From assembly GCA_964387845.1 (NCBI GenBank), contig CAYLXA010000002.1:1-64000 (forward strand): a DNA stretch of 64,000 bases, written 5' to 3'. The position numbers and the translations under genes were made by a program. This DNA comes from an uncultured bacterium. GTDB taxonomy: Bacteria > Omnitrophota > Omnitrophia > Omnitrophales > Abzuiibacteriaceae. The stretch's first letter is position 1. Each line of letters opens with the position of its first letter. Of the stretch, positions 2,169 to 8,386 are shown one piece after another. The notes under the pieces are model-generated. The model made no database searches. It saw nothing but the letters and a program-made list of their open reading frames with translations, and had not been told where the DNA came from.

Positions 2169-3593
2169 ATGGTTACTTATCCTGGGAAAAGTATGATGCA
2201 TCATCTGGCCCATATCTTTATCAGAGCCGTTCTTTTGTGCAGTCTAGCGCACTGTTTTTTTGTCTCGAGAGCGCACGCAGAAGGCGAAGTTAAGATAAAA
2301 ATTTTAGCCATGAATCCGTCGCCGTCTCAAAAAATAGAATCCCTAGTCCGTCAAAACCTGCCGCCCGAAATCAAGCCGGAGGACGTTGTCGATAACGCCG
2401 GAATGGAAATCAAATTCAATACCGACGAGGGTGTTTATTATGTTTCAAAACAAGTAAACCTTGAACCGAAAGAAGCGGTAACGATCGAGGTTCTTGTCCG
2501 GAATGTCTGGCTTGTTCCTGAGGAACGATTGACAAGATTGAGGGACACCGTTTCAACAACCACCAAATCTCTCGCAAAGACAAAATACGAAAAAACAGCT
2601 CAGCTGCTACAGGACAAGGTTTCCGAGCGGATCGGAACAATTGAGGAGGAGCAGGGGCGCAATATCGGAATCGGTAAACGCATCGAGCTTTACCGCTCTC
2701 ACTTGAAGCAGCTGGATGGCATTGAAAAAGAAGTTCTGTCTATCAGCGCGCTCCGCGAACTTGAGGGTGAGCAAGCGGAGGGTGTTCGAACCGCCAAGCT
2801 TGTCATTTCAGCAGAGAACCCTTCCGATGAGCCGCGCAAAATGACCGTGCGCTCTGATTTGCCAAAAGAAATTACCGCGAACGATGTACTGGACAGGCTT
2901 GATTTCCTGCTTTTGTATGATGAAACGAAGCAAAGGTTTTCAGTCGAGAAGGAAGATCAATTTGAAGCTCGAGAAACGAAGAAATATGAAATCACGCTCC
3001 GGGATGTTTGGTATATTCCCAGGATCGAATTGGAACGCTATAAGGAACAAACCGACAAGCTGGTCGCTCTTTTAAAAGGCAGTGCCTATGAAAATTATGT
3101 AACACAACAAGCCAAAATCATTGACGATACGCTGGTATCGATTGACCAATTGCAAATTGAGGTGCAATCGGCCGAATCTATTCAGGATAGAATCGAAGCA
3201 TTTGCACTCAACAGTGAACGTTTGGGGCTTATTAATAAGAAGGTCAAAGAATTACAGGATTTGCTTTTGGAAGTGCCTATCAAACGGCAAGTCAGTGAAA
3301 TTGAAAAAATTAAGCAAGCTATTAAATCACTGACAAAAGTCATGGATATTATCCGAATGGGTTTTAAGCCAGATTTGTCCACAACGTGGTGGATCATTCT
3401 TGGCATCATTGCGTTCTTGATCGTTCTGTCTACTACGTTTTATGTAACATGGCTGTCGCGCTTAAAGGATGCAAAAGGCGGAGCGAAGGGAGTTAAGAAA
3501 GATAAAAAGGGGACTGCGGCAAAAACACCGGCCGGTCAAGCGCAGAGTACTGCCGCAGCTACTCAACCGGCCGCGGAAGGAAAGCCGGCATGA
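2169..3593 (+). CDS. Exported or membrane-anchored protein. It has an N-terminal signal or anchor, two internal ~90-aa domain repeats, a coiled coil, one C-terminal TM helix and a Lys/Ala-rich tail.
   Basis: N-terminal hydrophobic segment. Paired motifs VRNVWLVPEERL and LRDVWYIPRIEL. TM segment WWIILGIIAFLIVLSTTFYVTWL. The stop overlaps the atpA start (ATGA). Confidence 0.6.
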   Translation: MVTYPGKSMMHHLAHIFIRAVLLCSLAHCFFVSRAHAEGEVKIKILAMNPSPSQKIESLVRQNLPPEIKPEDVVDNAGMEIKFNTDEGVYYVSKQVNLEPKEAVTIEVLVRNVWLVPEERLTRLRDTVSTTTKSLAKTKYEKTAQLLQDKVSERIGTIEEEQGRNIGIGKRIELYRSHLKQLDGIEKEVLSISALRELEGEQAEGVRTAKLVISAENPSDEPRKMTVRSDLPKEITANDVLDRLDFLLLYDETKQRFSVEKEDQFEARETKKYEITLRDVWYIPRIELERYKEQTDKLVALLKGSAYENYVTQQAKIIDDTLVSIDQLQIEVQSAESIQDRIEAFALNSERLGLINKKVKELQDLLLEVPIKRQVSEIEKIKQAIKSLTKVMDIIRMGFKPDLSTTWWIILGIIAFLIVLSTTFYVTWLSRLKDAKGGAKGVKKDKKGTAAKTPAGQAQSTAAATQPAAEGKPA

Positions 3594-5080
3594 GCCAGTT
3601 AAGTTATAAAGAGAATGGGATTGTGAAAGCGCTTAGCGGATGTATTGCCAGCGTCATCAATCTGCAGAATTGCTTTCTAGGGCAATTGGTCAAATTTGGA
3701 TACGGCACAGAAGGAATTATCATGGGTTTTGATACACAATCAGCCCAAGTGCTGATTGTAAAAGAAAATGAGCCAATTACTCCCGGAAACGTAGTGGAGG
3801 CCACGCTAGAGCCCTTTAATATGCCAGTCGGCGACGGATATATAGGAAGGATCGTCAATCCTTTGGGTGAACTTCAGGACGGCCGAGAGGCAGTGAAGCC
3901 GGATAAATATATCCCGTATTTTAACGATGCTCCCGGAATTATGGACCGGGAAGGTTTGAGCGAAACGCTTGAAACCGGTATTAAACTTGTCGACAGCATG
4001 CTGCCGCTGGGCAAAGGCCAGCGGTCATTGATTTTAGGCGATAAAATGACCGGAAAAACGACCGTGCTGACGGACATTATGGTCAACCAAAAGGGCAAGG
4101 ATGTGATTTGTATTTACTGCGCAATCGGCAAACCGCGCTCATCCATGGCCCGCGTTGTTGATCTCTTTAAGGAAAAGGGCTGTTTTGATTACACAATCAT
4201 TCTAACTGCGCCCGCATCCAGCTCCCCGGGGCAGCAGTACCTAGCGCCTTATGCGGCGTGTTCGATCGGTGAGTATTTTATGCACAAAGGAAAACATGTT
4301 TTTGTCGGATTTGACGATTTTACAAAGCATGCATGGGCTTATCGCGAACTGTCTCTGCTGATGCAGGTGCCGCCAGGGCGCGATTCTTACCCGGGAGATA
4401 TTTTTTATTTGCACTCCCGCATGATCGAGCGGGCGGCCAAATTAAACAAACAACTGGGCGGCGGGTCCATGACGTTCATTCCCGTGGTCGAGCTTTTGGA
4501 GGGCGATTTGACAGCTTATGTTCCCACCAACCTGGTTTCAATGACAGACGGACAGATCTTTTTGAGCATGCCGCTTTTTAATGAAGGTTTCCGGCCTGCC
4601 GTCGACGTTGGTTTGTCCGTATCGCGCGTCGGCAGCCGCGTCCAATGGAAATCAACAAAAGCGGTGTCTAAGTCACTTCGTTTGGAGTTCATTCAATATA
4701 AAGAATTGCTCCGCATTAGCAAACTGCAAACAGGCGGACAATCGGACGAGGTTCGGGAAAAGCTTTCTCAAGGAAAAGTTTTACAAGCATTGCTAACCCA
4801 ACCAGCGAACAATCCCGTTCCGCTGGAAGTGCAAATCATGTGCTTCTTTGCAAAAGGGGAGAATTTGCTTAAGGATCTCGAAAAAGATCAAATCAACGAA
4901 CTGCAAACGGGGCTCTGGGATTACTCGAACAGCAATGATTCGGGCCTGATTAAATTAATTCGGGAGAAAAAGGATCTGACGGACGAAATTAAAACCCGTA
5001 TCCGAAATGTGATTAATGCCTATGTGAAGGAAATCAAGGCGCGGACGGTTGTGCCGGTTGATGAAGTCGAGGTTGGCTAG
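3590..5080 (+). CDS. atpA: F-type ATPase alpha subunit (divergent)
   Basis: Walker A GDKMTGKTT. Alpha signature PGRDSYPGDIFYLHSRMIERAAKL. Also TAYVPTNLVSMTDGQIF and VGLSVSRVGS. Confidence 0.85.
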   Translation: MSQLSYKENGIVKALSGCIASVINLQNCFLGQLVKFGYGTEGIIMGFDTQSAQVLIVKENEPITPGNVVEATLEPFNMPVGDGYIGRIVNPLGELQDGREAVKPDKYIPYFNDAPGIMDREGLSETLETGIKLVDSMLPLGKGQRSLILGDKMTGKTTVLTDIMVNQKGKDVICIYCAIGKPRSSMARVVDLFKEKGCFDYTIILTAPASSSPGQQYLAPYAACSIGEYFMHKGKHVFVGFDDFTKHAWAYRELSLLMQVPPGRDSYPGDIFYLHSRMIERAAKLNKQLGGGSMTFIPVVELLEGDLTAYVPTNLVSMTDGQIFLSMPLFNEGFRPAVDVGLSVSRVGSRVQWKSTKAVSKSLRLEFIQYKELLRISKLQTGGQSDEVREKLSQGKVLQALLTQPANNPVPLEVQIMCFFAKGENLLKDLEKDQINELQTGLWDYSNSNDSGLIKLIREKKDLTDEIKTRIRNVINAYVKEIKARTVVPVDEVEVG

Positions 5081-5092
5081 CGAGAGAGTGTT

Positions 5093-6975: not shown

Positions 6976-6982
6976 ATAAAAG

Positions 6983-8386
6983 ATGCACGGACAAAATTTG
7001 CCGGACGCCATCGGAAAAGTAGTTGCGGTTAGAGGCCCGGTGGTTGATATCCGATTTGAGCAAGTAAGCGATATTCCCGCGCTTTATGCGGTTATTGAGG
7101 CGAAATCATTCACAAAGAAAAGAGTCGTGCTGCAGGTTGCGGAGCACTTGGGTGGAAATGACGTCCGGTGTATCGCGCTTTCAGATACATTGAATCTTCA
7201 ACTTAATTCAAAAGTCCGGAATACTCGTAAGCCCGTAGAGGTTCCCGTGGGAGATGAGCTGTATGGAAGAATTATCAATGTATTCGGTGAGCCCATTGAC
7301 CAACGAGGACCGATCGTTCCCACTTTTTTTCGCGTAATCCGCCGTCCGCCGCGCGATGACATATTCAACACCAAGGATAAATTCAGTGAAAAAGCAGAAG
7401 TTCTCGAAACGGGAATTAAGTATATTGATTTATTATTTCCGCTAGTGAAAGGCTGTAAAACGGGTATTCTGGGAGGGGCCGGATGCGGAAAAAGCGTCGT
7501 CATTCTGGAATTGATTAACAACATTGTCAAGAAGCATAACGGCGCTTGCGTGTTCACGGGAATTGGCGAGCGGATCCGCGAGGGAAACGATTTGTATCAG
7601 GAATTGTTGGATAATAACTTGACCGGAAAAGTTAAGCTGGTGTTCGGGCAGATGAATGAATCGCCCGGTGCGCGTTATGAATGCGTGAATACCGGAATTA
7701 CATTAGCGGAAGAATTGGCAGAGAAGAACAAGGATGTGTTGCTCTTTATGGATAACTTTTTCCGCTTTGTGCAGGGAGGCATGGAAATTTCAACGCTGAT
7801 GGGGCGCGTTCCTGGAGAGTCCGGCTATCAGCCCACGCTGACATCCGAGGTCAATTCGGCCGAGGAGAGAATCCGCTCTATTCCGGGCGGCGGTTCCATT
7901 ACATCGTTTCAAGCAGTGTACGTTCCGGCAGACGATATGACGGATCCTGCGGTGGTCGCTATTTTCAGCTGCCTAGATGCCGTGATGGCACTTTCGCGCG
8001 ATTTGGCGCAGCGAGGTTTTTTTCCCGCCATCGATCCGCTCAAAAGTTCGTGCTCAAATCTAAATCCGCGCATTGTCGGGCAGCGCCAATATGACCTGAG
8101 TCAAAAATTAATCTCGCTTTTTGCAAAATATAATTCCTTGAAACGTATCGTGCAAGTAGTCGGTATCGACGAAATTCCGAAGGAAGACCAAATTGATTTT
8201 AAGCGTGCAGAAAAACTTTTAAATTTCATGACGCAGCCTTTCACGGTTGCGGAAGCTTTCACGGGCAAGAAGGGCGAGTTTATCCCGGTTTTAGACGCAG
8301 TTAAGGATTGCGAGCGAATTATTGCCGGAGAATTTGATAAATTGCCTGCAAGCGATTTTTATTTAATCGGCCGTGCGCCGAATTGA
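6983..8386 (+). CDS. atpD: F-type ATPase beta subunit (divergent; Walker [16 protein letters not shown] replaced by DEIPKED)
   Basis: [73 protein letters not shown]. Confidence 0.85.

Follow-up and report, generated by a model that had tools for sequence, protein, structure and literature searches.

A Pilus-Linked F-Type ATPase Gene Cluster Without a Detectable a Subunit in an Uncultured Omnitrophota Bacterium

F-Type ATPase Genes at the Locus

A 64,000-nucleotide stretch of DNA from an uncultured Omnitrophota bacterium (family Abzuiibacteriaceae; contig CAYLXA010000002.1 of assembly GCA_964387845.1), referred to below as the window, was analyzed with regard to a cluster of five F-type ATPase genes at positions 3590–8386. 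The content and order of the cluster (alpha, c, b/delta, gamma, and beta), which had been described in the original prediction, an earlier annotation made from the letters of the DNA, were reproduced by the open reading frame (ORF) coordinates and by Pfam and NCBIfam matches. All five genes were located on the forward strand. The F1 alpha gene (3590–5080) encoded 496 amino acids (aa) with Pfam ATP-synt_ab and ab_C domains, and its score against TIGR00962 was 520.8 (cut-off of 484.45). It was followed after 12 bp by the Fo c gene (5093–5314), whose product was a 73-aa two-helix hairpin that matched PF00137 (ATP-synt_C) with 36.5 bits. The next gene (5332–6069) encoded a 245-aa peripheral stalk protein, a fusion of b with the C-terminal domain of delta, in which residues 162–232 matched OSCP and residues 7–134 weakly matched ATP-synt_B. 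The F1 gamma gene (6076–6975, 299 aa) was highly divergent and matched PF00231 with 65.7 bits (cut-off of 39.9). The F1 beta gene (6983–8386) encoded 467 aa with ATP-synt_ab_N and ab domains and scored 527.6 against TIGR01039 (cut-off of 462.85). The Walker A sequence GGAGCGKS and the DEIPKED loop noted earlier for beta were both present. The gaps within the cluster were no longer than 17 bp.

Absence of the a Subunit and of Epsilon

The a subunit forms the stator side of the ion path, and its gene was sought in the window and in related loci. The RLxxN stator motif was searched for with a regular expression in all six frames of the window, and nothing relevant was found. A hidden Markov model (HMM) of the a subunit was built from 15 canonical operons and run with the --max option on six-frame ORFs of at least 40 aa. 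As a control, the model found the a subunits of canonical operons, including two outside the training set, one of which was the a subunit of an N-ATPase. In the window, the top score was 8.8 bits, with an E value of 0.5. For comparison with related loci, a beta survey was used that held one genome per species, and the cluster was compared across loci together with flanking sequence of up to 10 kb per side. The locus set comprised 52 Omnitrophota-type species-representative loci, the window, and the metagenome loci L001–L009, and ORFs in these loci were labeled with jackhmmer profiles seeded from the window. Each of the Omnitrophota-type loci scored no more than 10 bits against the a-subunit HMM, and no a subunit was detected among about 57 loci with flanks of up to 10 kb per side. 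The a-less loci spanned four gene orders. An ORF of 81–98 aa between c and b of relatives was considered as a miniature a subunit and rejected, as it proved to be a c paralogue (hhalign probability of 98%). Moreover, no conserved charged residue that could substitute for the arginine of the a subunit was found in the transmembrane (TM) helix of b/delta. Without an a subunit there would be no arginine stator and no half-channels, and hence the canonical coupling of rotation to ion flow would be impossible for the complex as encoded.

Epsilon was likewise not detected in the window by jackhmmer seeded with the epsilon of a relative, so the earlier statement that neither a nor epsilon occurs in these 64 kb held for both subunits. 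The lack of epsilon was a feature of the window and not of the cluster as a type, because, among the 41 species-set loci with all five core genes (window included), 38 kept epsilon. The epsilon subunits of relatives were short (about 75–110 aa), and Pfam matched their N-terminal beta-sandwich domain. The loci without epsilon were the window and its nearest relatives (L001/L002, L010, and L012). The loss of epsilon is confined to the sublineage of the window, and it would be recent because of this restriction.

Conserved Linkage to a Pilus and Secretion Operon

The named close homologues of beta (62–80% identity) all belonged to Candidatus Omnitrophica or Omnitrophota. The beta subunits of the 52 loci were 48–78% identical to that of the window, and the next matches were ordinary F-type beta subunits of many phyla at no more than 47%. 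Most of the 52 loci were titled Omnitrophota; the others were titled uncultured Planctomycetales/Planctomycetia, uncultured bacterium, and, in one case, Patescibacteria. A recurrent gene order was observed. It began with the C-terminus of a giant ORF and a membrane protein of about 460 aa (up474), continued with alpha, epsilon, c, often a second c-like gene (c'), b/delta, gamma, and beta, and ended with PilB, PilC, pseudopilins, PilMN, a PilO-like protein, and a TPR protein. In all 50 loci whose sequence extended past beta, PilB was the next gene (median gap, 7 bp), and in 35 of 37 loci no other gene stood between up474 and the ATPase genes 3' of it. Among the sampled loci, the cluster always occurred together with the PilB/PilC block. 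The linkage of the ATPase to the pilus/secretion operon, to up474, and to the giant ORF is obligate.

In the window, the same arrangement was found on the forward strand. The 3' end of the giant ORF (1–2093) ran off the left edge, with the frame open from the window start (696 aa), and up474 (2169–3593), which had no Pfam match, overlapped the start of alpha by 4 bp. These two unusual upstream genes had been pointed out in the original prediction, which overlooked that they are conserved members of the same operon. Its description of the cluster as running straight into a type II secretion system (T2SS)/type IV pilus (T4P) operon was accurate: only 6 bp separated beta from a PilB/GspE-type hexameric ATPase (8393–10579) with an N-terminal MshEN domain, a T2SSE domain, and a C-terminal PilZ domain. 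This gene was followed by a PilC/GspF platform protein (10558–11793; PF00482, E = 2e-50) and a GspG-like major pseudopilin (11811–12251; T2SSG, E = 6.5e-31, plus N_methyl). A minor pseudopilin (12184–12660) had the N_methyl motif at residues 32–57, so that the true start was probably inside the ORF, and a GspJ-like minor pseudopilin (12635–13258) had N_methyl and a weak T2SSJ match. The block was completed by a PilM-PilN fusion (13246–14760; PilM_2 and PilN), a PilO-like protein (14776–15411) with a weak PilO match of 21.4 bits and a position conserved across loci, and a TPR protein (15408–16115), which was identified from Pfam and synteny as the last gene of the conserved block. A GspK-like minor pseudopilin (20120–21139; T2SSK_1st, E = 4.6e-21) was located 4 kb downstream of the block, and in more distant relatives (L004 and L008) such a gene was inside it. 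From the giant ORF through the TPR gene, the gaps ranged from -22 to 75 bp. A scan of this operon revealed no promoter-like or terminator-like sites beyond chance. The short gaps and the lack of an excess of terminator-like sites are consistent with one long operon from the giant ORF through the TPR gene.

The distant variants of the cluster (beta 48–57% identical) kept the same neighbors, with the exceptions of L093 and L091. The order epsilon-c-b/delta-alpha-gamma-beta was found in distant loci with an up474 module and in L058 and L060, and L092 had the order b/delta-c-alpha-gamma-beta, without epsilon. These orders were collinear with the canonical c-b-(delta)-alpha-gamma-beta core. Hence, judging from the gene orders, the alpha-first arrangement of the window is a derived rearrangement rather than an ancestral oddity.

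Several individual loci showed further features. In L092, a nucleotidyltransferase/HepT toxin-antitoxin pair and a GIY-YIG gene were inserted in the cluster (9309–9945 and 15203–15499). In L090, two tandem alpha paralogues lay between b/delta and gamma (15054–17982), and secretin and TPR genes (1935–3518) were located about 4.5 kb 5' of a large up474-module protein and about 10 kb 5' of the ATPase genes. In the window, a secretin was not observed in the vicinity of the ATPase cluster. In L093, PilC/GspF directly followed beta without an intervening PilB/GspE (8729–11475); here PilB may be encoded at another site or may be replaced in function by the F-type ATPase. In L058, two MotB-like genes (MotB_plug and OmpA), a MotA/ExbB-family gene, and FlbD were identified with Pfam directly 3' of the PilO-like gene (16639–19301).

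Subunit Anatomy of the ATPase

The catalytic residues and the arginine finger, whose conservation had been proposed as a check on the cluster, were conserved in alpha and beta. Across the family, beta kept GGAGCGK[ST], GERIREGN[ED], the Walker B aspartate, and PADDMTDP, and alpha kept the P-loop GDKMTGKT and the arginine finger SVSRVG. With these motifs intact, the head should be able to bind and hydrolyze, or make, ATP. The best PDB matches of beta were canonical beta subunits, with about 447 bits. The alpha subunit had only 8–11 residues before its barrel, compared with 28–31 in canonical alpha, and thus lacked about 20 N-terminal residues that are found in canonical and N-ATPase alpha. In known structures, this N-terminal helix docks the N-terminal domain of delta. 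The delta N-terminal domain was also absent here, which indicates that both partners were lost together.

The b/delta protein consisted of a TM helix and a long helix (b) fused to the delta C-terminal domain. The Omnitrophota b/delta profile matched canonical b over positions 5–160, and it matched canonical delta over the C-terminal 75 residues or so only (positions 162–246). Its best score was obtained with the long N-ATPase b (L079), which was matched in one stretch, and an N-ATPase b was also the sole outside match of b/delta by blastp. Among NCBIfam models, TIGR03321 was the best for b/delta (59.6 bits, cut-off of 224.7) and aligned with residues 9–242 of 246. A short b/delta fusion that carries only the delta C-terminal domain, as previously described, was therefore confirmed; it was not unique, since it matches the AtpF_N subunit of N-ATPases.

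The c subunit was aligned with canonical c by hhalign with a probability of 98%. In an alignment of 68 c subunits, it retained the membrane glutamate (E55), in register with the canonical Glu/Asp, and the RNPSAA loop, and the GxGxGxG motif was lost, with GPAIVIAVVG in its place. The c subunit of one species (L039, 5735–5953) had serine instead of the membrane glutamate. Of the 41 species-set loci with all five core genes, 24 had a gene for a second hairpin protein, c', between those for c and b/delta; examples were found in L004 (6286–6531), L008 (5275–5571), and 28 other loci, and c' was absent from the window. It was a divergent paralogue of c (hhalign probability of 98%, E = 2e-13); its helix 1 contained a conserved PC motif, and its helix 2 in most cases a glutamate, which was missing in about 5 of 30 cases.

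The gamma subunit scored 47.4 bits against TIGR01146 (cut-off of 194), and gamma, b, and c were all below the NCBIfam cut-offs. A 2026 preprint (bioRxiv 10.64898/2026.06.07.730766) reported alpha and beta in 125 of 176 complete genomes and gamma in 30; it also gave a V/A-type ATPase for most Gorgyraeia, with gamma "missing" by KEGG Orthology (KO) thresholds. The divergence of gamma (47 bits against 194) would cause KO-based surveys to miss it and would account for the low gamma count of the preprint.

Phylogeny of Alpha and Beta

A paralogue-rooted neighbor-joining (NJ) tree of alpha and beta was calculated with 100 bootstraps from sequences that included 27 canonical ones and a single N-ATPase. 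The pilus-linked clade was monophyletic in 100% (alpha) and 98% (beta) of the bootstraps and lay outside the 27 canonical sequences, in a tree without Mycoplasma type 2/3 sequences and without Omnitrophota "respiratory" F-type sequences. A sister relation to N-ATPase received support of 23% and 1%. The mean distance to canonical sequences was 0.92 for beta and 1.11 for alpha, compared with 0.74 and 0.83 between N-ATPase and canonical sequences. Thus, in the phylogeny that had been suggested as a follow-up, the subunits formed a clade of their own and were not nested among ordinary F-type synthases.

The Giant ORF, up474, and c-di-GMP

The tail of the giant ORF in the window (about 700 residues) consisted of about 35 copies of a 13-aa repeat, GVNWxDLxxLSKx, with a period of 39 nt, followed by a coiled-coil-like end. 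Homologues of this C-terminus lay directly 5' of up474 in 34 loci. The product of the giant gene in L006 was 8495 aa long, and many contigs ended within the giant ORF.

The up474 protein had no Pfam or NCBIfam match and was confined to loci of the Omnitrophota type. It had 70 homologues, of which the few with a named source were hypothetical proteins of Omnitrophica/Omnitrophota, and its profile retrieved 957 relatives among 1.84 billion representative proteins. An AlphaFold2 model calculated from 60 homologues had a predicted local distance difference test (pLDDT) value of 86.7 and a predicted template modeling (pTM) score of 0.70. The model contained a hydrophobic N-terminal helix, two modules that each combined a seven-stranded beta-sandwich with a helical bundle, a conserved TM helix (TTWWII; TTW[WK]II in the family), and a disordered lysine-rich C-terminal tail. 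It had no informative fold match in the PDB. In eight of eight tested relatives of 610–690 aa (P0252, P0261, P0268, P0270, P0273, P0297, P0310, and P0312), a cytoplasmic GGDEF domain followed the up474-type TM helix; other relatives were C-terminal modules of proteins with 1.2–3.4 thousand residues. The GGDEF-fused relatives indicate that the tail of up474 is cytoplasmic and that its modules are therefore periplasmic.

Four loci with distant up474 relatives (L090–L093) were examined, and in each the relative was encoded 5' of an a-less ATPase cluster. GGDEF-bearing relatives were directly 5' of the ATPase genes in L091 and L093 and were separated from them by a two-gene insertion in L092, and in L090 the module formed the C-terminus of a large protein preceding the cluster. 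Three of the four continued into PilB and/or PilC, and the short L091 contig displayed only up474 and epsilon. In L060, a gene for a response regulator with a GGDEF domain adjoined epsilon. GGDEF domains make cyclic di-GMP (c-di-GMP), and MshEN and PilZ domains bind it. Given the GGDEF domains on up474 relatives, the response regulator in L060, and the MshEN and PilZ domains on PilB, the system appears to be wired to c-di-GMP signaling.

Neighboring Genes

The regions 16481–19800 and 21117–22304 of the window held a GT2 glycosyltransferase gene (reverse strand) and an STT3/PglB-like oligosaccharyltransferase gene, which came 3' of the TPR gene, and a gene for an S41 C-terminal processing peptidase, which came 3' of the GspK-like gene. 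The pair of glycosylation genes, together with a DUF2304 gene, also came after the TPR gene in L001 and L006. These neighbors suggest that the pilins or the giant protein are glycosylated. The remainder of the window (22845–64000) held mostly sugar-nucleotide and glycosyltransferase genes (epimerases, a DegT aminotransferase, and PMT_2), along with housekeeping genes (NAD synthase, asparagine synthase, an E1 dehydrogenase, and RsfS) and a gene for a 1074-aa spermidine-synthase-like/TPR protein. No further ATPase subunits were present in this part, and a tRNA search of the window returned none.

Interpretation and Alternative Explanations

The cluster is best read as an accessory, pilus-linked F-type ATPase without an a subunit, of a kind that has already been published; we put the probability of this reading at about 0.9. 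The original prediction had left open two possibilities, namely that the cluster was the only, rearranged ATP synthase of the cell or that it was a rotary ATPase co-opted for another energized process. The former was not supported, in view of the separate clade (98% and 100%), of PilB as the next gene in 50 of 50 loci, and of the lack of an a subunit in about 57 loci. Moreover, a V-type ATP synthase was listed for Aceula lacicola, A. meridiana, and Zapsychrus exili (Williams et al., 2021, PMC8542988), and the loci L057, L027, and L052 come from the metagenome-assembled genomes (MAGs) of these organisms, so that the pilus-linked ATPase would be a second rotary ATPase there. The latter possibility agreed with the data and with the published proposal of a "symbiotic" ATPase (PMC10066038).

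That the enzyme is an ATP-driven motor or energizer of an envelope machine, and not a chemiosmotic enzyme, is favored to a moderate degree. An alpha3beta3 head with a complete catalytic site would sit on a divergent gamma rotor, which is presumably joined to a membrane c ring (plus c' in many relatives), and the head would be held by an N-ATPase-like b/delta-C stalk. The complex would share a transcript with the giant envelope protein, with up474, and with a pseudopilus machine of the T2SS/T4P type. ATP hydrolysis would turn the gamma/c rotor against the stalk and so supply the envelope machine with mechanical work or gating, which would serve to attach the cell, to move it on surfaces, or to attack prey; ATP would not be the product. 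The direction of catalysis, the rotation of the c ring, and the nature of the load are inferred from the genes, and any specific mechanical scheme is doubtful. One such scheme, which we consider rather unlikely, is a new type of envelope motor in which ATP hydrolysis spins a c (or c/c') ring that has ceased to transport ions. The ring might then drive the pseudopilus and the giant surface protein under c-di-GMP control, its torque being passed on either through the TM helix and periplasmic modules of up474 or through PilC as the platform. If true, the F-type architecture would have a third role in addition to making ATP and pumping ions, that of a mechanical engine spanning the inner membrane of a predatory or epibiotic diderm, and the mechanism would differ from that of the Mycoplasma gliding motor, which discarded the c ring.

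Several observations weigh against reading the cluster as an accessory ATPase without an a subunit. The a subunit was absent at the level of the locus, that is, from the 64-kb window and from about 57 loci with flanks of up to 10 kb, and atpB elsewhere in the genome is possible. The complex is known here from its genes, and the ATPase is tied to the pilus machine and to up474 by operon linkage only. The curated cut-offs for atpA (TIGR00962) and atpD (TIGR01039) are exceeded by alpha and beta, respectively. Furthermore, c with its membrane glutamate was the most conserved of the small parts of the system: c was 56–64% identical across variants and 47% in the most divergent one (L060), compared with 24–43% for gamma, and the membrane glutamate was present in all but one c subunit proper. 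Such strong conservation of c and its glutamate would be expected if the ring were coupled to ions and is left unaccounted for when an a subunit is lacking, and it keeps alive a rival in which an a subunit or another stator is encoded elsewhere. The cluster would then be a genuine chemiosmotic F-type synthase or ion pump whose a subunit is encoded elsewhere or is too divergent to be recognized, and its pilus linkage would reflect local energy supply or co-regulation. The intact catalytic residues of a head that passes ordinary synthase cut-offs agree with this view, as does the existence of split atp operons, such as the F1-only clusters of Alphaproteobacteria (L061, L063, L064, and L070). However, split operons keep c and b with a, whereas here a alone is missing, in about 57 loci and four gene orders. 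The cluster was never apart from the PilB/PilC block in the sampled loci, a V-type ATP synthase that would serve chemiosmosis has been reported for MAGs that contain the locus (PMC8542988), alpha has lost its docking helix and delta its N-terminal domain, and the glutamate is replaced by serine in the c subunit of L039 and missing from about 5 of 30 c' proteins. We regard this explanation as improbable. It is quite improbable, too, that the cluster is an export or unfolding energizer similar to FliI-FliH-FliJ of the type III secretion system (T3SS). In that case the F1-like head, with its b/delta-like tether, would dock on a membrane gate and assist the export or assembly of the giant protein or of pseudopilins, and continuous rotation would matter little or not at all. 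FliH is considered homologous to b plus delta, FliI to alpha/beta, and FliJ to gamma (bioRxiv 10.1101/2021.01.01.425057, abstract), and the view of FliH as a b-delta fusion is attributed to Pallen (2006) as cited in Dibrova et al. (2010, PMC2881411). The giant ORF always precedes up474 and the ATPase, and secretion genes flank the cluster. Nevertheless, the head is of a heterohexamer type that scores no more than 200 bits with FliI/SctN models (cut-offs of at least 380), the c ring and epsilon that are absent from T3SS ATPases are retained, and no homologue of an export gate was found in the operon.

Two further explanations derive the cluster from known accessory F-type ATPases. The stalk of the AtpF_N type, for which an N-ATPase b was the best outside match (and by blastp the sole one), the lack of a separate delta, and the seeming status as a second rotary ATPase, as in N-ATPases, would be expected of a degenerate Na+-extruding N-ATPase that lost atpQ, atpR, and atpB; the distant order epsilon-c-b-alpha-gamma-beta also resembles permuted N-ATPase orders. 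We give this origin very little credence. The alternate-F1Fo models failed for alpha (TIGR03324, 477 versus a cut-off of 750.5), for beta (TIGR03305, 474 versus 752), and for b (TIGR03321, 60 versus 225), and the sister relation was found in 23% and 1% of the NJ bootstraps. In addition, c had neither the second glutamate nor the Na+ motif, the alpha N-terminal helix kept in N-ATPase was missing here, and AtpQ and AtpR were absent from a cluster whose gaps of up to 17 bp leave no space for them. That the cluster belongs to the Mycoplasma type 2/type 3 F1-like ATPases, which include the G1-ATPase gliding motor, or is a homologue of them gained by horizontal transfer, is hardly credible. A published alpha tree does place the Omnitrophota subunit with types 2/3 (PMC10066038), and both are second, non-respiratory F1-like ATPases of host-associated bacteria with reduced genomes. 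By contrast, the cluster passed the ordinary atpA and atpD models and fell short of MMOB1660 (NF045863, 399.7 versus 600), MMOB1670 (NF045858, 415.5 versus 850), MSC_0619_alpha (NF045936, 270.1 versus 520), and MSC_0618_beta (NF045934, 383 versus 570), and the M. mobile G1 beta in the PDB was matched with 338 bits, compared with about 447 for canonical beta. The Mycoplasma clusters, moreover, lack c, b, and delta and contain three unrelated proteins (PMC3369863).

Omnitrophota are widespread, ultra-small bacteria that have yet to be isolated as pure cultures and that are believed to live as predators or epibionts. An a-less rotary ATPase in a pseudopilus operon would be a concrete candidate for the engine of their attack machinery and a natural experiment on the role of an F-type rotor without an ion channel. 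The subunit-level description turns a short genomic remark into structural hypotheses that can be tested. It also calls for caution in annotation, as the label "F0F1 ATP synthase" in these genomes does not indicate chemiosmotic ATP synthesis.

Relation to Published Work and to Known Rotary ATPases

A non-respiratory "symbiotic" F-type ATPase beside type-4a pilus clusters was described for Omnitrophota by Seymour et al. (2023, Nat Microbiol, PMC10066038). According to that work, 56 of the 111 species of Velamenicoccia have it, V. archaeovorus among them; ATPase and pilus genes lie within 10 kb of each other on 57 of 66 contigs and are found in every Omnitrophota class; and the alpha subunit groups with the type 2/3 ATPases of Mycoplasma. 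Its text and the supplements examined make no mention of the c ring, subunit a, or atpB, and neither this paper nor the others that were read connect the giant ORF with the ATPase/pilus locus. Nothing on expression of the ATPase was found in the V. archaeovorus papers that were examined. The system as a kind is already known, and the window is a further member with minor variation, namely the loss of epsilon. The following points were not found reported: an Fo of c (often with c') and b/delta only; the N-ATPase-like stalk; the loss of the alpha N-terminal helix; the obligate linkage to up474, with its GGDEF-bearing relatives, and to the giant ORF; the alpha-first order as a derived state; and the loss of epsilon in this sublineage only.

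Canonical F1Fo (atpIBEFHAGDC) shares homologous alpha, beta, gamma, c, and b with the cluster, as well as epsilon in most relatives, the catalytic motifs, and the c-ring glutamate. The cluster differs in the lack of a, the delta N-terminal domain, the alpha docking helix, and GxGxGxG in c, in its gene order, and in its position within a pilus operon. Canonical beta was at most 46% identical to the beta of the cluster in pairwise blastp (up to 47% in the beta survey), whereas identity was at least 58% within the main clade and 48–57% in the divergent variants. N-ATPase (atpDCQRBEFAG) has in common with the cluster a long b with a region similar to the delta C-terminus and no separate delta, and both are accessory second F-type ATPases that branch apart from ordinary F-type enzymes; a b plus delta-C architecture of N-ATPase b (AtpF_N) was described by Dibrova et al. 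(2010, PMC2881411). N-ATPase keeps a, AtpQ, AtpR, and the alpha N-terminal helix, all of which are missing from the cluster. Its c subunit has a Na+ motif and two glutamates; by eye, the c of the cluster has isoleucine at the Gln/Glu ligand position of TM helix 1 and reads AEATS in TM helix 2, not ES/ET...Y of the N-ATPase type.

The Mycoplasma type 2/3 enzymes, including the G1-ATPase of M. mobile (PDB 9io5), are similarly accessory F1-derived ATPases with a surface or motility use in a host-dependent bacterium. They differ in an unrelated "X0" membrane sector and a long N-terminal extension of beta. Their clusters have seven genes, none of which encodes c, b, or delta and three of which encode unrelated proteins, among them 3-TM and 12-TM ones (Beven et al., 2012, PMC3369863); no such extra 3-TM or 12-TM proteins were present in the cluster, which has c and b/delta instead. 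FliI-FliH-FliJ resembles the cluster as an F1-related ATPase with a b/delta-like tether that serves an envelope-spanning nanomachine. It is a homohexamer without a c ring or epsilon, whereas the cluster has distinct alpha and beta subunits, and the best score of the cluster with FliI/SctN models was 199.9 (cut-off of 379.5). The closest correspondence was with the loci of Seymour et al. (2023), which share with the window the phylum, the non-respiratory alpha/beta clade, and the adjacency to PilB, PilC, and pilins. The window belongs to Omnitrophota, has a separate alpha/beta clade, and carries pilus genes within 10 kb of the ATPase (PilB at 6 bp); it is thus a further instance of these loci, from a sublineage that additionally lacks epsilon.

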